The position numbers and the translations under genes are program-made. A stretch of 64,000 nucleotides of DNA from Candidatus Sungiibacteriota bacterium (lineage in GTDB: Bacteria; Patescibacteriota; Minisyncoccia; Sungbacterales; SURF-37), in the NCBI GenBank assembly GCA_016186145.1, contig JACPMF010000007.1:19302-83301 (forward strand). Reading direction: 5' to 3'. Positions within the stretch are counted from its first letter, which is position 1. Every line of letters starts with the position of its first letter. Under the pieces are notes generated by a model. The model did no database searches. It was given only the letters and a program-made list of their open reading frames with translations, and had not been told where the DNA came from. Below, piece by piece: positions 918-60,715 of this stretch.

Positions 918-1853
918 TTACAGGGATTCGATCCCTGTAGAGAAAAGGGCCAACGCATTTTTTGTCGTCATTTCTGACACTTCTTCTACCGATAAATTTT
1001 TAAGCTCAGCAAGCTTTTTGGCAACCTCAATAACATATAGCGGTTCGTTGCGTTTGCCTCTGTAGGGAATGGGCGCCACGTAAGGAGCGTCTGTTTCTAG
1101 AAGTATGCGCTCCATCGGAATGTATTTTACAACTTCGTCGTAGTCGCGCGAAAAAGTTATGACGCCGCCGAAAGAAAACGAAAACCCCAAATCAAGAAGT
1201 TCTTTTGCGTCCTCTTTGACACCGGAAAAAAAATGAATAATGCCGGGAGGAGAACTTAGAACTTGGAGCTTGGAACTTAGAATTTGAATCAGGTCGGGAA
1301 ACGCTTGACGGCAATGAATCATCAGGGGCTTTTTAACCTCGGCGGCTAACTTGATTTGTTGAAGAAAAACTCGATGCTGTTTTGCTTTTCTCTCTTCTAT
1401 AGGCAATCCGCCTTCGCCACAGGTTTCGGCGGATGCTCGTTTTTGTTGTCGCTCGCGTTGCTCGCGAACAAAAACGGCATAATCTAATCCGCATTCGCCA
1501 ATCGCAACAACTTTCGGGTTCTCTGCTAATTTTTTGTAATACTCATAATCAAAAACCTCTCCCCTACTTTCAAATCCTCCTAATTCCTTATTCGTAATTC
1601 CTAATTCCTGTTCATCGTGATATGACTTTTCCGTGTGAATCGGATGAAGCCCCACAGCCGCATACACACCCTCCGTGTATTTTTCGGTAAACCCTACCGC
1701 CCGAGCCGCCGTGTCTTTTTGCGTGCCAACATTAACCATCCACACCCCGGAATCTCTTGCGCGCTTGATTACCAAATCAGCGTCGTCCCGAAACGCCGCG
1801 AATTGAACATGGGTGTGGATATCAAAAAGTTTTGGGATTGACAGAAATTTCAT
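918..1853 (-). CDS. tatD: TatD-family metal-dependent hydrolase/DNase
   Basis: N-terminal DIHTHV motif, GLHP, ECGLD, C-terminal ETDAPY. Contains an in-frame insertion (...ILSSKLQVLSSPP...) encoded by a tandem array of AACTTRG octamers at 1250..1290. Confidence 0.85.
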   Translation of the reverse strand: MKFLSIPKLFDIHTHVQFAAFRDDADLVIKRARDSGVWMVNVGTQKDTAARAVGFTEKYTEGVYAAVGLHPIHTEKSYHDEQELGITNKELGGFESRGEVFDYEYYKKLAENPKVVAIGECGLDYAVFVREQRERQQKRASAETCGEGGLPIEERKAKQHRVFLQQIKLAAEVKKPLMIHCRQAFPDLIQILSSKLQVLSSPPGIIHFFSGVKEDAKELLDLGFSFSFGGVITFSRDYDEVVKYIPMERILLETDAPYVAPIPYRGKRNEPLYVIEVAKKLAELKNLSVEEVSEMTTKNALALFSTGIESL

Positions 1854-2541: not shown

Positions 2542-4062
2542 TTAATGCGGGGTCTCACCTAATCTAGGAAAAAGAGCTTTCTCTTTTCTAACAACTAATA
2601 CCGAATCTTCAATATGAATCTGCTCCTTTATTTTTTCGGCTGTTTCCGGTAAAAACGGCTCCAGTAAATTGGCGATGGTGGAAATAACATAACCGGCATT
2701 TATAACAACGGCTTTCAAATCATCTCCGGCAAGCATCCAGGGCTTCTTCTCATTGATATATCTGTCGCTAAGCGAAACAAGCTTCCAAACGCTAATCAGC
2801 GCCTCGTTCAGCCGGAACCCCTCAAGCTGGCGCTCGTACTCCAGAAAAACATTCTTACAGCCGACGCGTATTCTTTCTTCAATTTCTTTTTCTCCGCCAG
2901 AGGCGGAGAAATCAAAACGAATCGGCCCGAGCTTCGCGCCAACCGCAGCAATCCGGGCCACCAGATTACCGAGTCCGTTAGCCAAGTCTCCGTTATAACG
3001 CTCTTCAAATTTTTTATAGCTAAAGTCGCCGTCTTCATACGAAGGAAATTCGCGCAAAAAATAATATCTAACTGGATCAGCTCCATATTTATCGACAACC
3101 TCATCCGGCGATATCACATTACCTACCGTTTTAGAAATCTTTTGGCCTTCGACGTTTACAAAGCCATGAACAAAAATTGTTTTGGGCAATTCAAGCCCTG
3201 CTGACAAAAGCATCCCCGGCCAGATTGCGGCGTGAAAACGCAAATTGTCCTTACCGACAACCTGAACGTCAGCCGGCCACCACTTAGAGAATGCTGAATG
3301 CTGAATGCTGAATGCTGAATCATCGTGGCCGTAGCCGATGGCAGAAATGTAGTTTACCAGCGCGTCGCACCATACATACATGGTTTGCGTCGGATCGTCC
3401 GGCACCGGCACGCCCCATGGCAAATCTTTGCTGGGTCGGGAAAAACTCACGTCCTCAAGGCCGCTTTTTATTAACGAGAGAATCTCATTTCTTCTCGAAT
3501 CCGGCAAAACGTTCATGCGTCCGGAAACGATCGCCTGCTCTATTTGTCGGGAAAATTTTGACAACCGAAAAAACCAATTTTCTTCCTCAACGACCTCCGG
3601 CTCTTTTTGGTGATCCTGGCATTTCCCGCCGATCAAATCTTTTTCGGTTATAAACGCTTCGTGCCCCACGCAATAAAGGCCGCGGTATTTTTTCCAATAT
3701 ATATCCCCTGAATCTTTCAGCGCCCGCCACATTTTTTGAGCGCCGGGCCAGTGCCGTTTCTGGTCGGATGTTCGTATGAAATCGTCGTAAGAGATATTCA
3801 GAAGTTTTTGCATATCACGGAACTTCTCTGAATTTTCATCAACCAGCTCTTTCGGCGTTTTTCTTTCTTCTTCCGCTTTTCGAACTATCTTTGCGCCATG
3901 CTCGTCGGTGCCAACCAAAAAACGGACATCGTCGCCCTTAATCCTTCGGTAGCGCGCAAGAACATCGGCAATAAGCGGATCCAAAATATGGCCGACATGG
4001 GGCGCGGCGTTAGCATACGGGATGCTGGTTGTAATATAAAATTTATTTTTTTGATTTGACAT
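2542..4062 (-). CDS. metG: methionyl-tRNA synthetase
   Basis: Class I aaRS HIGH-type motif (PHVGH) near the N-terminus and KMSKS-type motif KISKT. The track ORF extends to a TTG at 4239. The ATG at 4062 (MSNQKNKFYITTSIPY...) is the more plausible start. A divergent gene starts at 4135. Confidence 0.9.
   Translation of the reverse strand: MSNQKNKFYITTSIPYANAAPHVGHILDPLIADVLARYRRIKGDDVRFLVGTDEHGAKIVRKAEEERKTPKELVDENSEKFRDMQKLLNISYDDFIRTSDQKRHWPGAQKMWRALKDSGDIYWKKYRGLYCVGHEAFITEKDLIGGKCQDHQKEPEVVEEENWFFRLSKFSRQIEQAIVSGRMNVLPDSRRNEILSLIKSGLEDVSFSRPSKDLPWGVPVPDDPTQTMYVWCDALVNYISAIGYGHDDSAFSIQHSAFSKWWPADVQVVGKDNLRFHAAIWPGMLLSAGLELPKTIFVHGFVNVEGQKISKTVGNVISPDEVVDKYGADPVRYYFLREFPSYEDGDFSYKKFEERYNGDLANGLGNLVARIAAVGAKLGPIRFDFSASGGEKEIEERIRVGCKNVFLEYERQLEGFRLNEALISVWKLVSLSDRYINEKKPWMLAGDDLKAVVINAGYVISTIANLLEPFLPETAEKIKEQIHIEDSVLVVRKEKALFPRLGETPH
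3291..3318. repeat. heptanucleotide tandem repeat (GAATGCT/ATGCTGA)x4 inside metG, encoding a repeated SAFSIQH-type peptide
   Basis: Four perfect 7-nt units counted directly in the sequence. A 7-nt unit is not a multiple of 3, so any single-unit slippage would frameshift metG. Confidence 0.8.
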
Positions 4063-26528: not shown

Positions 26529-27860
26529 TTTCGGCCCCATTAATTCTTCCTTGGCAGCCTGCCTGTCGTCCCACGGTATTTTTACTCCGGCAGGACCCAT
26601 GATAAACCGTTCCGCCCCCTTGCCGGTGATAACCACCGTATCGCCGGGCATTGCGAGACGCAGAGCTTCACGAATTGCTTCACGACGATCGATATAGCTT
26701 TTAGCTTTTAGCTTATAGCTTATAGGTACGCCCACCGCAACATCATCTATAATTTTTTGTGGATTTTCATCGTATGGGTCTTCGTTGGTCAAAATAACTT
26801 CGCTGCAAAACTCCGAGGCGATTTTTCCCAACTCCGGGCGTTTCCATTTATCGCGCCCGCCTCCGGCAGCACCCAAGACGCAAAGGAGCTTAAATCTTGG
26901 AGCTTGTCCGCCGAAGGCGGATCCACCTCTGGCGGAGAGCTTGGAGCGCTTACGAAGCGTTTCATAAACTTTCCGCAATGCATTTGGAGTGTGGGCGTAA
27001 TCGACAACCACGCGAAACGGTTCGTTTTGAAGAACTTCAAGCCGACCGGGAATACTCTTTATATGTTTAAGAGCGCCGGCTATATTTTCAAAAGAAACCC
27101 CAAAAGAACGCGCCGTAGCGACAGCCGCAAGGATGTTAGAGACATTAAATTGCCCGAAGAGCGCTGAATAAAAATCTATTCCGCTCACCCGAAAATATAT
27201 TTCGTTTTCGCAAGAAACATTGCTCACCGAAAACTCAACGCCGCCAACAACCAAAGACGCCGTGCTGTAAAAATTTATTTTCGCGCGTGCTCGCTTTGCA
27301 AAAAATTCCCATGCCGGATCGTCGCGATTCAAAACTGCAATTCCGTCGGAACCAAGCGCCTCAAAAAGCTTTGCTTTTGCCGCACGGTATTTCTCAAAAT
27401 CGCCGTGCGACTCAATATGCTCCGGCGTCAAATTCGTAAAGACGGCACAATCAAATGTTATAAACCGGTGCCGAAATTGCTTGATGCCCTCGGAGGTGAC
27501 CTCGATGACGGCAAACCTCGCTCCGGCTCTTCGCGCATCGGCAAGAAACCGCTGGACGGCAAACCTTCCCGGCATGGTCATTTTGAGAACATTCGGCCGC
27601 TCGCTTTCATTAATCTTGAAACGAAGAGAGGAACAGGAGGCAACCGAATAACCGCTTTTCAAAAAAATCTCGTGCAGCAAAGAAACAACGCTCGACTTTC
27701 CATCCGTTCCGGTCACCCCAATGACAACGAGACGGCGCGAAGGGAAAAGATAAAAAAACGCCGCAAAAAAAGCCAGTAAAAAATGGTAAAACGGCTGAAG
27801 CATTTTGAAAATCGGCCGCGGAATAATTTTTTTTAGCAGGGCTAAAACGGAATTTGACAT
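26526..27860 (-). CDS. Mur ligase family protein (MurE/MurF-like UDP-N-acetylmuramoyl-peptide ligase)
   Basis: P-loop VIGVTGTDGKSS. Central and C-terminal Mur ligase domains. Short TM-containing N-terminus. Contains an in-frame palindromic insertion (...LSARGGSAFGGQAPRFK...). Confidence 0.7.
   Translation of the reverse strand: MSNSVLALLKKIIPRPIFKMLQPFYHFLLAFFAAFFYLFPSRRLVVIGVTGTDGKSSVVSLLHEIFLKSGYSVASCSSLRFKINESERPNVLKMTMPGRFAVQRFLADARRAGARFAVIEVTSEGIKQFRHRFITFDCAVFTNLTPEHIESHGDFEKYRAAKAKLFEALGSDGIAVLNRDDPAWEFFAKRARAKINFYSTASLVVGGVEFSVSNVSCENEIYFRVSGIDFYSALFGQFNVSNILAAVATARSFGVSFENIAGALKHIKSIPGRLEVLQNEPFRVVVDYAHTPNALRKVYETLRKRSKLSARGGSAFGGQAPRFKLLCVLGAAGGGRDKWKRPELGKIASEFCSEVILTNEDPYDENPQKIIDDVAVGVPISYKLKAKSYIDRREAIREALRLAMPGDTVVITGKGAERFIMGPAGVKIPWDDRQAAKEELMGPK
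26884..26958. repeat. in-frame palindromic insertion element inside the Mur ligase gene
   Basis: GAGCTTAAATCTTGGAGCTTG-TCCGCCGAAGGCGGATCCACCTCTGGCGGA-GAGCTTGGAGCGCTT. Shares CTTGTCCGCCGAAGGCG(G/A)ATCC with 28556..28580 and is flanked by direct GAGCTTGG repeats. Confidence 0.45.
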
Positions 27861-37914: not shown

Positions 37915-40548
37915 CTAACTTAACTCGCCCCAATTTTTCCCTTTCTTGACGTCAACGCCGAGACGCACTCTTCCGCGCCAAACTCCCTCCATTGCGGATT
38001 TAATTTCCAAAAGAACCTCGTCGGCGCTATCCTCTTTTAGCTCGCAGAGCAGCTCGTCATGGATCTGCAAAAGCATGCTGGCTTTCCCCAAAAAACGTTC
38101 CCGGATCAAACCATGAACCTTTATCATGGCTTTTTTCACAACATCCGCGGCCGTACCCTGAATCGGCGTATTGACCGCCATGCGCTCTGCCTCGGATCGA
38201 ATCATCGGATGCGGTGAAACGATTCCCGGCAGCGTGCGCTTCCTGCCGAAGGCTGTTTTGACGAATCCGTGTTCGCGCGCGAACTCTCGGGTGTCCTCGA
38301 TAAATTCAGCAATACCCCGAAAGTCGTTGAAGTATTCCGCAATAAACGTTTCAGCCTCCTCAACAGTAATGCCAGCGGCCTCGGCAAATCCTCTGGCACC
38401 CATGCCATAGAGCACTCCAAAATTCAGCGCCTTGGCTTTCCGGCGCAATTCCGGCGTTACCTTTTCAAGCGGCACATTGTTAACTTCGGCGGCAGTCAAA
38501 GAGTGAATGTCAAAGCCGTTTTCGAACGCCTCGATCATCTTCCTATCATTGGCAAGGTCGGCGGCAATGCGAAGTTCTATCTGCGAATAGTCAAAAGAAA
38601 CAAGCGTCCAGCCCGATTCCGCCGTAAACGCTTTGCGGATTTCCCGGCCAAATTCCGTTTTCACAGGGATATTTTGTAAGTTAGGGTTCTCCGAAGCAAG
38701 GCGTCCGGTTTCGGTTCGTGTTTGGTTAAACGTAGTATGCAAACGACCGTCTTTGCCGACAAACTCGGGCAAAGGGTCAATGTAAGTGGTCTTCAACTTT
38801 GAAAGCTCGCGGTGTCGGATAATCTTTTCAACAATCGGGTGGCGCCCAACGAGTTTCGACAGCTCAGAAAACTTTGTCGAAATCTTACCGCCGCCGGTTT
38901 TCCGGATACCCTTCGTGGTTATGCCCATTTTTTCAAACAGGACTTCCGAAACTTGCTGAGGCGAACTGAGATTAAACTCTACTCCCGCCTCTTTATAAAC
39001 CGCTCCGGTGAGAGATTTGAGTTCTTTGCCAACCTTCATGCCAAGCCCTTTAAGCGGCTCAATGCGGAATCGAATTCCGCGCATTTCCATCTCGGCCAAA
39101 ATAGGAGCAAGCGGAATTTCAATGGCTTCAAAAACATCCCAGAGCCCTTCTTCTTTAAGGCGAACCTCAACTTTCGGCCCGAGTTTCAACAAAGTTTGCA
39201 GTGTTGCCGATACGTCGCCGGAGGGCGGCACACTCCCAAGCTCAGCGCCAGCCAAGCCCTCAAAAGAGTACTCACTTTTCCCGGGATCAAGAAGATGCGC
39301 GGCAAGCACAAAATCAAAAAGTTCTCTTCCTTGAATTCCCTCTGGGAGTAACACTTTGTAAACCGGCTTTGCGCCAAATACATATTTCCGCGTATCGGAT
39401 TCAAAAAATTCTTTTAGCGTTTCGTCAGAAAAATCCCTCCATGAAAACGAAAAAATTTTTCCGTTGGGAAGCATCATGACTATTTTTGACTCTTTTTCCG
39501 CAAACGAGATCGCCGCCGAGGAAACTTTTTTCTGCAACGCCCTTCGAAACGCCGAAACCCCGGGGAACCCCATCGAACTGAAAAGCGCGCCCTGATTTCC
39601 GGCCGGGACTTCATTTTTCTTCGAAACAGGTGCTGCCGCAACTTCTTTCAAGCGTTTCACCAGACTGAAAAACCCGAGATCGCGAAAAAGTTTTTCAACC
39701 GCATCGTCGCGGCGTTCTGCTACTCGAGAAATTTTTTCGAGTCCAAAATCAACCGGTGCGTCTTTTTTGATAGTTGCAAGCTCCCGCGAGAAAAAAGCGT
39801 CTTTTTTGCCCTGAACCAGTTTTTCTTTTACCGCTTCTCTGGCAACCAGCTTTCCGCTCTCAAGCGCCTGATAAAGCTTCTCGAGAGTTTCATAAGGAGC
39901 CAGAAGATCCGATGCGGTTTTCTCGCCAATACCCTTGACGCCGGGAATATTATCGGACGGATCGCCGCGAAGACCTTTATAATCAGGAAGGAATTTCGGC
40001 CCAATGCCGAACCTTGATCGCACCGCTTTCTCATCGTAAAGAACGGTATCGGAAACGCCTTTTCTCATGGTCCACACTTTTGTCTTCGGACCAACCAGCT
40101 GTAAAGTATCCATGTCGCCGGTAACAATAATAATTTCAACCTCCGGGTGTTTTTTTTGAGTCCTCTCGACGGCAGTTCCGATAACGTCATCGGCCTCAAA
40201 CCCTTCATTCTCGAAAACCGAAACGCCAAAAGCGGCGAGAACCTCTTTCACCCTTGGAATTTGCGCGTAAAGCTCGTCAGGGGCTTTTACCCGTGTCGCT
40301 TTATACTCTTTATATGCCTCGTGCCTGAAAGTCGGCTTGGGAGTATCAAACGCCGCAACAACATAGTCCGGCCTCTCCTCGCGAAGAATCCGGAGAAGGA
40401 TGGTTGTAAACCCATACACGGCATTCGTCGGCTCGCCCAAAGGCGATGTCAACGGCGGCAAAGCATGAAAAGCGCGATGGATGATAGCGTTGGCGTCAAT
40501 AAGAACTAATTTCTTTTTCGTCTTTTTGATTTTAAATTGTTTTGCCAT
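37915..40548 (-). CDS. polA: DNA polymerase I
   Basis: 877 aa. N-terminal 5'-3' exonuclease (LVLIDANAIIHRAFHA...) and C-terminal family A polymerase motifs (...RRKAKALNFGVLYGMG..., QIHDELL). Confidence 0.95.
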   Translation of the reverse strand: MAKQFKIKKTKKKLVLIDANAIIHRAFHALPPLTSPLGEPTNAVYGFTTILLRILREERPDYVVAAFDTPKPTFRHEAYKEYKATRVKAPDELYAQIPRVKEVLAAFGVSVFENEGFEADDVIGTAVERTQKKHPEVEIIIVTGDMDTLQLVGPKTKVWTMRKGVSDTVLYDEKAVRSRFGIGPKFLPDYKGLRGDPSDNIPGVKGIGEKTASDLLAPYETLEKLYQALESGKLVAREAVKEKLVQGKKDAFFSRELATIKKDAPVDFGLEKISRVAERRDDAVEKLFRDLGFFSLVKRLKEVAAAPVSKKNEVPAGNQGALFSSMGFPGVSAFRRALQKKVSSAAISFAEKESKIVMMLPNGKIFSFSWRDFSDETLKEFFESDTRKYVFGAKPVYKVLLPEGIQGRELFDFVLAAHLLDPGKSEYSFEGLAGAELGSVPPSGDVSATLQTLLKLGPKVEVRLKEEGLWDVFEAIEIPLAPILAEMEMRGIRFRIEPLKGLGMKVGKELKSLTGAVYKEAGVEFNLSSPQQVSEVLFEKMGITTKGIRKTGGGKISTKFSELSKLVGRHPIVEKIIRHRELSKLKTTYIDPLPEFVGKDGRLHTTFNQTRTETGRLASENPNLQNIPVKTEFGREIRKAFTAESGWTLVSFDYSQIELRIAADLANDRKMIEAFENGFDIHSLTAAEVNNVPLEKVTPELRRKAKALNFGVLYGMGARGFAEAAGITVEEAETFIAEYFNDFRGIAEFIEDTREFAREHGFVKTAFGRKRTLPGIVSPHPMIRSEAERMAVNTPIQGTAADVVKKAMIKVHGLIRERFLGKASMLLQIHDELLCELKEDSADEVLLEIKSAMEGVWRGRVRLGVDVKKGKNWGELS

Positions 40549-40602
40549 GCCAAACTAAAAAGTAAAAATGAAAAAGGAAAAATCAAAATGTAAAACTAAA
40601 AA

Positions 40603-40974
40603 CTACCGTCGGCCCTTGATAGTGAGAATGCTGGCACCAAGAATGTTGGCTATCTCAATAAGCTCGTTGAGCAGGAATTCTATTTCTTGTCTGTTGCCGC
40701 GGCCAGTATCACGGAGAACAGCCAACCAAAATCTGGATTCATTGGCCGACTTTAGCGCATGATGCAAGAAATTTGCGAAATCTTTTTTAGAGCTTGCTGC
40801 TTGGGCTTCTATATAGTTTGCTCCCACACTCCCGCCGCTACGAAATAATTGATCAACAATTCTCTGTGTAATAGTGTCTTTAGGAGCTGAATCAAGAAAT
40901 TTGATTAGACGTAGTACCCAAATATAAATGCGGCGCTTAAATTCAGTTTTGAATTTTTCCTTGTCGTTTTTCAT
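40603..40974 (-). CDS. four-helix-bundle protein (TIGR02436-like; 23S rRNA intervening-sequence protein family)
   Basis: 123 aa. ...RSGGSVGANYIEAQAASSKKDFANFLHHALKSANESRFWLAV... matches the characteristic motif. Confidence 0.75.
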   Translation of the reverse strand: MKNDKEKFKTEFKRRIYIWVLRLIKFLDSAPKDTITQRIVDQLFRSGGSVGANYIEAQAASSKKDFANFLHHALKSANESRFWLAVLRDTGRGNRQEIEFLLNELIEIANILGASILTIKGRR

Positions 40975-40991
40975 TTTTAATTTTTACCTTT

Positions 40992-41471
40992 TCATTTAAT
41001 AATGATGTGCCTATGTCCTCTTCCCTTATGCTTCAACTCTACCCACAGCGCATCTTTTGGAATATGCTTTTTTATCTTCTCCGGCCACTCAACCGCAACA
41101 AAGTTTTGCGCATCGTCGAAAACCCCATTAAACCAGGATGCCGCCGGCTCTTTTTTGCCGCCAAGACGGTACGCGTCAATATGAACCAGAACGCGCCAGG
41201 GCATACCGCGTTTTTTCACCTTGTATTTTTTCGCGATAACGAAAGTCGGACTCTGAACTTTTTCTGAAACGCCGAGCGCCTTCCCGAGACCCTGAACAAG
41301 CGTGGTCTTTCCTGTTCCAAGCTCGCCGGAAAGAGCAACGACTGCTGCCGTTCCGATTTTTGAAAAATCTTTTTTAAGTTTTTTAATGACAAAACGAGCG
41401 ACCCTTTTGGTTTCAACGGGATTTTTGGTGCGATACCTCATCGGCTTAAGCGTAACAAAAATTGAGGGCAA
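40992..41471 (-). CDS. tsaE: tRNA threonylcarbamoyladenosine biosynthesis ATPase TsaE
   Basis: P-loop ALSGELGTGKTTLVQGL. About 159 aa, YjeE family. Confidence 0.85.
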   Translation of the reverse strand: MPSIFVTLKPMRYRTKNPVETKRVARFVIKKLKKDFSKIGTAAVVALSGELGTGKTTLVQGLGKALGVSEKVQSPTFVIAKKYKVKKRGMPWRVLVHIDAYRLGGKKEPAASWFNGVFDDAQNFVAVEWPEKIKKHIPKDALWVELKHKGRGHRHIIIK

Positions 41472-58865: not shown

Positions 58866-60533
58866 ATGCCTATTTTTGAAGAGGAAAAACAAAAAAAGAA
58901 AATTGCGGGCCTCTGGCGCCAAGAGGAAGAGGAAACAACAAAACTGCTTTCTGAAAAATATAAAGTCTCCTATTTGAACCTCGCAATAACGCCCATAAAC
59001 ACCGAAGCATTGAAAATCGTGCCTGAAGAAGAGTCGCGCCGGGCAGGACTTGCGGTCTTCCAAAAAATCGGGAAACGGCTTGAGATTGCCGTCGGCGGAC
59101 CAGACAGATCGGAAACTGTCGCCGCCCTCAAAAAACTCGCCAACGACGGATATGCCTATACCCTCCATCTTGTCTCAAAAACCAGTCTTGAGCACGCGTG
59201 GGGTTTTTTTAAACAGATCGCGGAACGCGGGGATGCCATTACCGGCCACATCCAAATCTCTGACGCTCGCCTCGAAGAATTTCAAAAAAGCCTTGCAACG
59301 CTCAAAGACCTTCAGGGGCTCCTCCACGAAATTGGGACAAAACGCACCACCGACACCCTGGAATTGATCATCGCGGGCGCCCTGAAAACAGACGCCTCGG
59401 ACATACACATAGAGCCGCAAGAAGAAATTGCCAGGATTCGATACCGCCTGGACGGAGTGTTGCATGACGCGGCAGACATCCCTACCGCCGTTTACAAACC
59501 GCTTCGCTCCCGAATCAAACTCATCTCCGAACTAAAACTCAACATAACCGCCAAAGGACAAGACGGGAGATTTACCATAAAAAGCGCCGGAACAGAAACA
59601 GAAGTCAGAACCTCCACCCTCCCGGGTCCCTACGGAGAAAACATTGTAATGCGAATCCTCTCCCCAAAAGCGATCGCGATGAAATTTGAAGATCTCGGCA
59701 TGCAATCGTGGGCAAGAGAACAAATGGAGCGCGAGCTGAAAAAACCAAACGGTATGATCCTTGCAACGGGGCCGACCGGATCGGGGAAAACAACAACACT
59801 CTACGGCTTTCTGAAAAAAATCCACTCACCGGACATCAAAATCGTCACGATTGAAGACCCTATCGAATACCATTTAACCGGCATTGAACAAACACAGGTA
59901 GAACCGGAACACGGATACGATTTTGCTTCAGGGCTTCGCTCCATCATCCGCCAGGATCCCGATGTCATCCTTGTCGGCGAGATTCGCGACCTGGAAACAG
60001 CAGAAACGGCAATGCACGCCTCCCTCACCGGCCATCTTGTCTTCTCCACCCTGCATACCAACAGTGCCGCAGGGACAATCCCGCGCCTTTTAGACATCGG
60101 CGTCAAACCGACCATCATTGCCCCGGCCGTAAATATCGCCATGGCGCAACGGCTTCTCCGCCGGCTCTGCACGGCATGCAGCGTAAAAGGGCCGGCAACC
60201 GCAGAAGAACGCAAAACAATAGCAGCGGAATTTGCTCTGTTTCCTCCTAAAATTAAAAAACCGGACATCCGCGAACTGGAACTTTCCCGAGCCACAGGGT
60301 GCCAGGCATGCAATCTCACCGGTTACAAAGGCAGAACCGGCGTTTACGAAATAATCCTCATCGACGATGCCATGGAAGCCCTCATCTTCAAGGACCCGTC
60401 TGAAGCAACAATAAAAAAAGCCGCCTTTGAACAGGGGCAGATCACTATGCGCCAAGACGGAATACTAAAAATCGTAGCCGGCGTCACAGACCTCGCTGAG
60501 CTAGAACGAGTAGTCGGCGGTGCAACAATGTAA
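58866..60533 (+). CDS. pilB: type II/IV secretion system ATPase (PilB/GspE family)
   Basis: N-terminal GspII-like domain, Walker A ATGPTGSGKTTTL, Asp and His boxes, and a C-terminal tetracysteine (CTAC...CQAC). Confidence 0.9.
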   Translation: MPIFEEEKQKKKIAGLWRQEEEETTKLLSEKYKVSYLNLAITPINTEALKIVPEEESRRAGLAVFQKIGKRLEIAVGGPDRSETVAALKKLANDGYAYTLHLVSKTSLEHAWGFFKQIAERGDAITGHIQISDARLEEFQKSLATLKDLQGLLHEIGTKRTTDTLELIIAGALKTDASDIHIEPQEEIARIRYRLDGVLHDAADIPTAVYKPLRSRIKLISELKLNITAKGQDGRFTIKSAGTETEVRTSTLPGPYGENIVMRILSPKAIAMKFEDLGMQSWAREQMERELKKPNGMILATGPTGSGKTTTLYGFLKKIHSPDIKIVTIEDPIEYHLTGIEQTQVEPEHGYDFASGLRSIIRQDPDVILVGEIRDLETAETAMHASLTGHLVFSTLHTNSAAGTIPRLLDIGVKPTIIAPAVNIAMAQRLLRRLCTACSVKGPATAEERKTIAAEFALFPPKIKKPDIRELELSRATGCQACNLTGYKGRTGVYEIILIDDAMEALIFKDPSEATIKKAAFEQGQITMRQDGILKIVAGVTDLAELERVVGGATM

Positions 60534-60715
60534 CTCACAACCGACAACTTACAACCAACGACACGATGTGCATTGTTATAAGTTGTATGTTGTTCGTTGT
60601 CAGCCAACGAGATAGCGAGTCCTGTTAGAAAATTTACATTCGCCGAATTACAACAACCATTGCCATTGCAACTACTATTGGTTTACTTTTCACCGCACTA
60701 TATAAATTTTCTAAC

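Follow-up and report, generated by a model that had tools for sequence, protein, structure and literature searches.

A perfect heptanucleotide array in a hypervariable loop of a Sungbacteria methionyl-tRNA synthetase gene and an excess of period-7 repeats in Parcubacteria

Introduction

Heptanucleotide repeats were described in 2007 as the most abundant class of long simple repeats in many prokaryotic genomes and, as that report (Mrazek, Guo & Shah, PNAS 2007) is represented in later papers, polymerase slippage was proposed as their origin, a length of about 7 nucleotides (nt) corresponding to the segment held at the polymerase active site (PMC4692102, PMC4679880). According to later authors, the report has had no detailed follow-up (PMC4692102, PMC4679880). 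Here, we describe a perfect array of such a repeat, (GAATGCT)4.6, in metG, the methionyl-tRNA synthetase (MetRS) gene carried by a stretch of 64,000 nt from Candidatus Sungiibacteriota bacterium (assembly GCA_016186145.1, contig JACPMF010000007.1, positions 19,302 to 83,301; hereafter the window), and compare it with related loci and with heptamer arrays elsewhere. As in the 2007 report, insofar as it is represented in the papers that cite it, period 7 exceeds its neighbouring periods, here in Parcubacteria and in unrelated metagenome contigs; unlike the cases published there, which are summarised as mostly intergenic, with in-gene repeats said to favour multiples of three, the arrays of Parcubacteria lie mostly in housekeeping genes, have about four copies and use local sequence as their unit.

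Several better characterized systems invite comparison. In Escherichia coli K1, the neuO gene of phage CUS-3 carries an AAGACTC tract of 3-53 units, commonly about 20, and is a phase switch whose ON state requires a copy number divisible by three (PMC13001214). The metG array resembles it in having a coding 7-nt unit, a frame kept by threes and a heptapeptide repeat produced by reading the unit in three frames; in contrast to the tract of neuO, an accessory gene in which it is long, 5'-terminal, polymorphic and acts as a switch, the array in metG is short, lies in the middle of the gene for an essential enzyme and gives no sign of variation. Geobacter metallireducens possesses 49 elements of four tandem heptamers located in and between genes (PMC2700814), an architecture shared by the arrays reported here, which consist of four (or five) tandem 7-nt units and occur within genes, sometimes several in one gene, and also between them. 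Whereas the Geobacter elements reuse the same unit (GGACCGG at 49 sites, MTYCTGA at 15) and have been read as regulatory, the units of Parcubacteria vary by site. Direct repeats of TAACTGA are abundant in Beggiatoaceae, cyanobacteria and Bacteroidetes (PMC4679880), and regulatory roles have been proposed for heptamer arrays, CspB binding one heptamer per protein (PMC2700814, PMC4679880). With these and the cyanobacterial short tandemly repeated repetitive sequences, our arrays share the tandem heptamer organization in 2-6 or more copies, and the CAGTTAC unit of sister lineages is close to TAACTGA; unlike those genome-specific units, which are mainly intergenic and upstream of start codons, GAATGCT is unrelated to TAACTGA and lies inside a gene. 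Finally, the extra residues of MetRS resemble lineage-specific insertions in aminoacyl-tRNA synthetases in that they occupy a surface loop of the catalytic domain whose length is variable among bacteria, yet they differ from most such insertions, the source of which is untraceable, in that their origin is still visible as an undecayed 7-nt DNA array. We found no description in the literature of heptanucleotide arrays in the candidate phyla radiation, Patescibacteria or Parcubacteria.

Results

A perfect 32-nt array within the metG coding sequence

Tandem Repeats Finder assigned to the metG array (Table 1) a period of 7, 4.6 copies, 100% matches and the consensus GAATGCT. The plus strand reads GAATGCT four times followed by GAAT, 32 nt without interruption, and the coding (minus) strand accordingly reads G-(ATTCAGC)x4-ATTC-T, of which the unit may also be written AGCATTC. 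The original prediction, made from the letters of the window alone, had described (GAATGCT)x4 at 3291-3318; this repeat is real and perfect, but it is the inner 28 nt of a run that extends from 3289 to 3320. In our own lag scan covering periods 1 to 15, the array was the sole long perfect run in the window. Three sites reached at least 18 of 21 lag matches at lag 7, as opposed to none at lags 4-6 and 8-12, and at 17 of 21 matches there were six sites at lag 7 versus 0-1 at other lags. None of 20 block shuffles of the window contained a stretch of 21 lag-matches reaching even 18/21. The shuffles and the other-lag controls thus rule out a chance origin of the array which, as a 7-nt run above chance length, is a long simple repeat of the type reported in 2007. 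A structured DNA or RNA element was likewise considered and rejected, the folding of the single-stranded array being no better than that of shuffled sequences (z-scores of 0.56 and 0.48).

The assignment of the host gene to metG, also part of the original prediction, is borne out by the best match among solved structures, Aquifex MetRS (2CSX, E=5e-116, residues 6-483), and by 100% identity over 506 amino acids (aa) to an NCBI protein annotated as 'MAG: methionine--tRNA ligase [Candidatus Sungbacteria bacterium]', where MAG stands for metagenome-assembled genome. Domains PF09334 and PF08264 are precomputed on a protein identical to that of the window (P0001), and both signature motifs are intact and in frame, the HIGH-type motif as PHVGH (residues 21-25) and the KMSKS-type motif, downstream of the array, as KISKT (residues 308-312). 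The mechanical open reading frame (ORF) extends further upstream than the coding sequence, to 4239, where it starts at a TTG. The array spans codons 248-258 and encodes D-SAFSIQH-SAF in the context DD-SAFSIQH-SAF-SKWW; the wider translation reads ...IGYGHDD-SAFSIQH-SAF-SKWWPADVQVVGKD... It had been claimed that the protein in the supplied ORF track holds one heptad more than the nucleotides encode, and that the repeat might therefore be unstable or miscounted in the assembly. Both statements go back to a counting error (28 nt instead of 32 nt), since translation of the 32 nt gives exactly the 11 residues seen; direct translation, ...GYGHDDSAFSIQHSAFSKWWPAD..., contains 1.6 heptads and is the same as the deposited protein.

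Table 1. Location of the metG array, of its host gene and loop, and of comparable heptanucleotide arrays in the window and in leucyl-tRNA synthetase (LeuRS) genes adjacent to MetRS in related loci (coordinates of each locus)
Feature	Locus	Coordinates	Strand	Evidence or description
Perfect heptanucleotide array, 4.6 units	Window	3289..3320	(-)	Tandem Repeats Finder, lag scan, codon view, offset in coding sequence
metG coding sequence, 506-aa MetRS	Window	4062..2542	(-)	Motifs, structure match, identity to NCBI protein
Hypervariable loop carrying the array, between IGYG and WWPAD, residues ~243-261	Window	3280..3336	(-)	Alignments, AlphaFold model, structure gap
Decayed heptanucleotide array in TatD	Window	1251..1282	(-)	4.6 copies, 84% matches, LSSKLQV-LSS
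Decayed heptanucleotide array in TatD	Window	1578..1609	(-)	4.6 copies, 84% matches, ELGITNK-ELG
Heptanucleotide array in Mur ligase gene	Window	26693..26725	(-)	4.7 copies, 92% matches, ISYKLKA-KSY
Perfect array in LeuRS, beside MetRS	L021	5952-5981
Perfect array in LeuRS, beside MetRS	L021	6051-6080
Perfect array in LeuRS, beside MetRS	L068	13903-13936
Perfect array in LeuRS, beside MetRS	L007	4905-4936
Perfect array in LeuRS, beside MetRS	L024	4370-4400

The number of units is constrained by the reading frame

Because 7 is not a multiple of 3, successive units are read in three frames, which yields the heptapeptide SAFSIQH. When the number of units was edited in silico, alleles with 1, 4 or 7 units left MetRS open, at 499, 506 and 513 aa, respectively, whereas 2, 3, 5 or 6 units led to a stop at residues 254-306, ahead of KISKT; the truncated alleles also lose the anticodon-binding domain. 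The expectation that gain or loss of a single unit would frameshift MetRS is thus correct, 3 or 5 units leading to a stop before KISKT. MetRS is essential, assuming the usual single copy, and metG is limited to 1, 4 or 7 units because only net three-unit changes survive in an essential enzyme. Protein searches revealed no MetRS between that of the window, which forms a one-member cluster, and a match at 84% identity, and a flank-anchored pattern allowing 1-5 units found no match among the metagenome contigs scanned.

The array occupies a loop that is variable in length and sequence

In an AlphaFold model of MetRS built with 35 homologues in the alignment (mean predicted local distance difference test score, pLDDT, of 88), internal residues with a pLDDT below 50 were confined to 250-255, within the array peptide, and 387-390. 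Residues 241-254 were predicted as coil and 255-261 as a short helix, and solved MetRS structures show a gap opposite the array peptide. In 117 close MetRS homologues the loop, counted from G to W, was most often 14 aa long (73 proteins); 16 proteins had a 10-aa loop and 14 a loop of 16-18 aa, while lengths of 21 and 28 aa were each seen in two. In the MetRS of the window it is 17 aa long. About 11 of the 14 loops of 16-18 aa were among 22 loops flagged for at least two identities at a 7-aa offset. To judge from these sequences, the lengths may be accounted for as 9-11+7, 14+7 and 14+14 aa. The peptides SAFS/SIQH were absent from the 116 other close homologues and occur in the window genome alone. 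In substance, therefore, the suggestion of an in-frame insertion, for which the original prediction had asked for a MetRS alignment, was right: the alignment shows a peptide unique to this lineage in a 17-aa loop where others have 10 or 14 aa. Relative to 30 short-loop orthologues the array amounts to +7/+8 aa, and relative to 13 Sungbacteria-type loops to +3 aa.

Loops of 16-18 aa with a 7-aa period are found in at least 15 related lineages. Other lineages carry 7-aa-periodic peptides of their own in the same loop, including SKFQIPN-SKF, DPRSKIQ-DPR, SKLKTQN-SKL, KVKSKKV-KVKS (P0048) and NYELGIR-NYG. At the DNA level, the units of relatives were GATCCAA (L009), CAAGAT-type (L018), GAATTAG (L016) and CAGTTAC (L082, L001, P0010 and P0013), every one of them made from local codons. 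One parallel pair consists of a 10-aa loop, GEEN-SKF-PHW (P0113), and a 17-aa loop, ADEN-SKFQIPN-SKF-WKW (P0071), whose relation is the same as that between a deduced GHDD-SAF-SKW and the observed GHDD-SAFSIQH-SAF-SKW. The closest relative (L001; 84% identity, syntenic) has a longer, decayed ACTAGTA/AGTTACC array at the loop site equivalent to that of the window; AGCATTC and the ACCAGTT-type units of this relative are alike at 4/7 positions in a comparison made by eye only. We also observed that the CAGTTAC unit (3733-3757 in L082, 5753-5802 in L001, and in P0010, P0013, P0020 and P0021), once reverse-complemented, is one base off TAACTGA, and that the corresponding loop peptides, QLPVTSYQ and QLSIISYQ (the latter in P0020), resemble the published 'reverse' translation of TAACTGA, LSVISYQ.

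Period 7 is in excess across Parcubacteria

We surveyed 80 MetRS loci from species-representative genomes, all of them Parcubacteria/Paceibacteria-type MAGs from many projects, together with the window and L001, for a total of 82 loci and 1.3 Mb. Arrays of at least three copies numbered 133 at period 7, compared to 17, 25 and 9 at periods 6, 8 and 9, respectively. Perfect runs longer than about 22 nt were nearly all of period 7, periods 8 and 9 contributing one each (26 and 24 nt). The 40 loci closest to the window had 138-145 arrays per Mb, as opposed to 48-72 per Mb in more distant loci; a 50-kb E. coli control contained no period-7 arrays. The likeness that had been noted between the metG repeat and repeats in tatD and other genes is therefore correct and much broader than first seen. 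The 133 period-7 arrays use 84 canonical units, and the metG array is not a copy of a single-unit dispersed element, the unit changing from site to site.

The modal copy number was 4.6, with 150 arrays in long ORFs and 44 outside. Perfect period-7 runs fell into two length classes, one of 17-20 nt and another of 29-35 nt that peaked at 31-32 nt; 24 perfect runs of at least 29 nt lay in long ORFs with the frame kept, and four perfect runs, of 23, 26, 31 and 35 nt, lay in DNA closed in all frames. When arrays were extended with mismatches allowed, 4.x copies were found in 47/75 coding arrays versus 2/14 arrays outside long ORFs (Fisher p=0.001), where copy number was flat from 2 to 5. A peak at 4.x copies in coding arrays is what a reading-frame filter acting on 1+3 units predicts. 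A made up 50% and G 10% of the coding strand of the arrays, as opposed to 28.5% and 25% in the background. Stop-codon avoidance alone would not give this composition; the filter is likely to be selection for hydrophilic loop peptides rich in K, N, Q and S. The metG unit is atypical of the arrays in base composition.

Two genomes of the survey share an identical perfect (AAAATCA)4.6 array in a class-I synthetase-like gene (118-149 in L002 and 1595-1626 in L014), and the peptides on either side of it are the same (YPFAWA-QNQKSKIKNQK-EKLLYP). Across the local region the two are 84% identical, whereas their MetRS are far more diverged; the match could reflect shared ancestry with conservation, recurrence or gene transfer.

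Arrays in LeuRS recur at the same positions

At a site of LeuRS defined by PEH-x14-EVxxYI, 23 of 29 lineages share the 14-aa length; DNA identity at lag 7 varies between 0.12 and 0.83. Perfect or near-perfect arrays are present there in four lineages (ATTACAA, ATTCAAA, ATCAAGA and ATCCAAA), each unit being the lineage's own codons for a conserved I-x-N. LeuRS arrays of different lineages (Table 1) share their positions and bring no length difference from most orthologues.

The same unit beyond the clade

Arrays of ATTCAGC of at least 3.6 copies were present in more than 120 metagenome contigs, and the G+C content of the 80 whose DNA was analysed ranged from 0.36 to 0.73. The modal length of these arrays was 31-33 nt. 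Flanks were unrelated among the 50 ATTCAGC arrays compared, and a mobile element or conserved cassette was rejected for want of shared flanks. The same contigs harbored 52 further period-7 arrays with other units, which displayed no 32-nt length mode. In viral contigs we counted 14 ATTCAGC stretches, and for two scrambled versions of identical composition 2 and 13. The scrambled-unit counts and the 52 other-unit arrays led us to dismiss the idea that GAATGCT is special; heptamer arrays as a class are common. Support for a universal ruler of about 32 nt is thus found for ATTCAGC in metagenomes and neither for other units there nor outside the long ORFs of Parcubacteria.

Several of these contigs deserve mention in their own right. 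One viral contig (IMGVR_UViG_3300028840_003139, 39,965 nt; L205, L207, L212, L213 and L215) contains at least 12 separate ATTCAGC arrays; here a single genome favours one heptamer, as has been described for Geobacter and Beggiatoa. Two unrelated metagenome contigs with G+C contents of 0.54 and 0.63 (L127, 1799-1829; L148, 3158-3188) have the same 31-nt array encoding NSAFSIQHSAL, which directly precedes the (I/L)ANPPY motif of a putative N6-adenine methyltransferase. Elsewhere (L087, L099, L109, L134 and L152), ATTCAGC arrays often directly adjoin heptamer arrays with other units (GACGAGT, CATTTTT, ATTATGA and CGCCCCT), from which it follows that arrays cluster.

Discussion

We consider it probable that the metG array arose recently, when slippage on an 11-nt seed added three units within a permissive loop and the reading frame filtered the outcome, against the background of a lineage-wide bias to period 7. 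The perfect 32-nt run, unique to one lineage among 117 homologues, argues for a recent event. The ancestral loop would have been GHDD-SAF-SKW (10 aa), as deduced from the present peptide, its DNA containing the seed ATTCAGC+ATTC (11 nt), with a 4-nt microhomology that is found again 7 nt downstream. Repeated misalignment of the nascent strand on this seed may then have added three 7-nt units (21 nt, 7 codons) in what would have been a single three-unit step, the extra residues forming a disordered loop and being probably neutral. The event in metG would be one case of a lineage-wide mutational bias to 7-nt registers, a bias that is the already described heptanucleotide excess of prokaryotes.

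A number of observations weigh against slippage expansion of a short seed. A jump of three units from a seed of 1.6 copies departs from ordinary stepwise slippage, the frameshifted intermediates of which would be lethal. Relatives at 70-76% identity mostly have 14-aa loops, relative to which the array adds 3 aa, and the 10-aa ancestral loop is deduced in that no close relative shows one, the closest, L001, having a different array. The mode of about 32 nt of ATTCAGC arrays is also seen in non-coding-looking metagenome contexts, so that a frame filter alone is insufficient to explain it. At sites of perfect arrays, net length differences were 0, +3, +4, +7, +8/9 and +12/13 aa. At site 1 of LeuRS, where L021 carries a perfect 30-nt array, its protein can be aligned with those of both Thermus and E. 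coli with no gap (RIKNQESRIK versus PVEGKEVRIP and NVNDYDNTLT), and the MetRS loop of L082 is of ordinary length and yet consists of a (CAGTTAC)3.6 array. Pure insertion is thus not the whole mechanism: either arrays overwrite sequence at constant length, or old arrays are re-homogenised within lineages.

Applied to metG, the former possibility would mean that repair or gap filling replaced part of a 14-aa loop with some 30 nt in a 7-nt register, for a net gain of 9 nt; the constant-length arrays of LeuRS and of the L082 MetRS would have arisen by the same process. The range of net changes just listed, including the +3 aa of the window relative to 13 neighbours, and the lack of a net gap between perfect arrays and most orthologues (and, at site 1 of LeuRS, between the array and the sequences of Thermus and E. 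coli) speak in its favour, as do the ordinary length of the L082 loop and the stereotyped array length of 29-35 nt, with an ATTCAGC mode that is alike in diverse and even apparently non-coding metagenome contigs. We nevertheless deem length-ruled overwriting of the metG loop unlikely, given that array-bearing loops cluster at 16-18 aa, the length of short loops plus 7, that copy number outside the long ORFs of Parcubacteria runs flat from 2 to 5 and has no peak, that other units, sampled without bias from metagenome contigs, lack the 32-nt mode, and that constant-length cases can also be explained by re-homogenised old arrays or by separate in-frame deletions. We know of no enzyme that overwrites DNA in a 7-nt register, and this, too, counts against it. 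A wider proposal, somewhat less doubtful in our view though still speculative, is that Parcubacteria, and perhaps many environmental bacteria, have a distinct mutational process that, working in a 7-nt register from short conserved seeds such as I-x-N (ATTnnnA+AT), would write patches of about 30 nt, sometimes adding 21 nt, sometimes overwriting at constant length, and would repeatedly re-homogenise the same loops with units peculiar to each lineage. In that case, the metG array would be a recent trace of this process rather than of ordinary microsatellite slippage.

The array might instead have been retained by selection, either as a useful loop extension or as a binding site for a protein that recognizes heptamer repeats, along the lines of the Geobacter and Beggiatoaceae TAACTGA proposals. 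That the same loops are hit in many lineages, and that a single LeuRS site bears perfect arrays with different units, could be taken in this sense, together with the published regulatory proposals for heptamer arrays and the binding of CspB (PMC2700814, PMC4679880). However, the 133 arrays comprise 84 canonical units, too varied for any one sequence-specific reader, and the peptide is unique to one lineage and predicted to be disordered, while the DNA carries no fold signal; recurrence in the same loops is expected from tolerance and conserved seeds of the I-x-N kind, and the 50% A of the coding strand is in keeping with filtering for hydrophilic residues. A selected element is accordingly improbable. 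The contingency-like switch suggested by the original prediction, whereby gain or loss of units would toggle metG in a subpopulation, finds a precedent in neuO, which shows that coding heptanucleotide tracts can switch (PMC13001214), and a perfect tract is the state most prone to slippage. Yet there are only 4.6 units in metG, in place of the long tract of 3-53 (commonly about 20) in neuO, the gene is essential and not accessory, and a change by one or two units, by truncating the protein at residues 254-306, would remove the KMSKS motif and the anticodon-binding domain in the OFF state. LeuRS, TatD and a Mur ligase bear arrays of this size as well, coding arrays have about four copies clade-wide, and variant alleles were found neither in the one-member protein cluster nor in the flank-anchored scan of metagenome contigs, making a switch very improbable. 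Still less credible is an artefact of assembly or consensus, with a unit number that is wrong or made by the assembler: short repeats can be mis-assembled and the sequence is a MAG, but a run of 32 nt is much shorter than a read, the frame is undisturbed, both flanks align to orthologues, protein and DNA agree, contrary to what had been claimed, and equivalent arrays are found in MAGs from many projects and assemblers, ATTCAGC itself in more than 120 unrelated metagenome contigs.

Taken alone, the metG repeat is a neutral-looking loop extension of seven residues, and a clean, undecayed example of how new loop sequence enters essential enzymes in these bacteria. The wider pattern is one in which period 7 alone is in excess, coding arrays have about four copies, and the same loops are affected with different units and sometimes at constant length; the survey provides a concrete data set for the old observation that the heptanucleotide is the favoured long simple repeat of prokaryotes. 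The low-complexity segments with a 7-aa period to which these arrays give rise can mislead the alignment and annotation of proteins from the candidate phyla radiation. A distinct process working in a 7-nt register would, if true, be a measurable source of new loop sequence in very conserved enzymes.

Other period-7 arrays in the window

The four arrays of the window differ in unit according to Tandem Repeats Finder (GAATGCT, AGAACTT, TCCTAAT and TATAGCT). The position homologous to the first TatD array of Table 1 was also flagged for arrays in L006, L028, L033 and L072, and the relative L003 has a form similar to the second (QELGIANKELGG). Decayed A/T-rich period-7 arrays at 40550-40605 (about 6-8 copies) and 40957-40997 (about 4-5 copies) edge the stretch between a family-A DNA polymerase gene (37915-40548, minus strand) and tsaE (40992-41471). 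In the product of the former, Pfam at E<=1e-5 matched 5'-3' exonuclease and polymerase domains only and detected no 3'-5' exonuclease domain in residues ~276-498; a proofreading-deficient Pol I might bear on slippage. Lastly, two weak period-7 arrays of opposite orientation, at 60532-60559 (AACnnAC) and 60573-60603 (TTGTnnG), sit between a T2SSE-type ATPase gene and ruvB and could form a heptamer-repeat hairpin.

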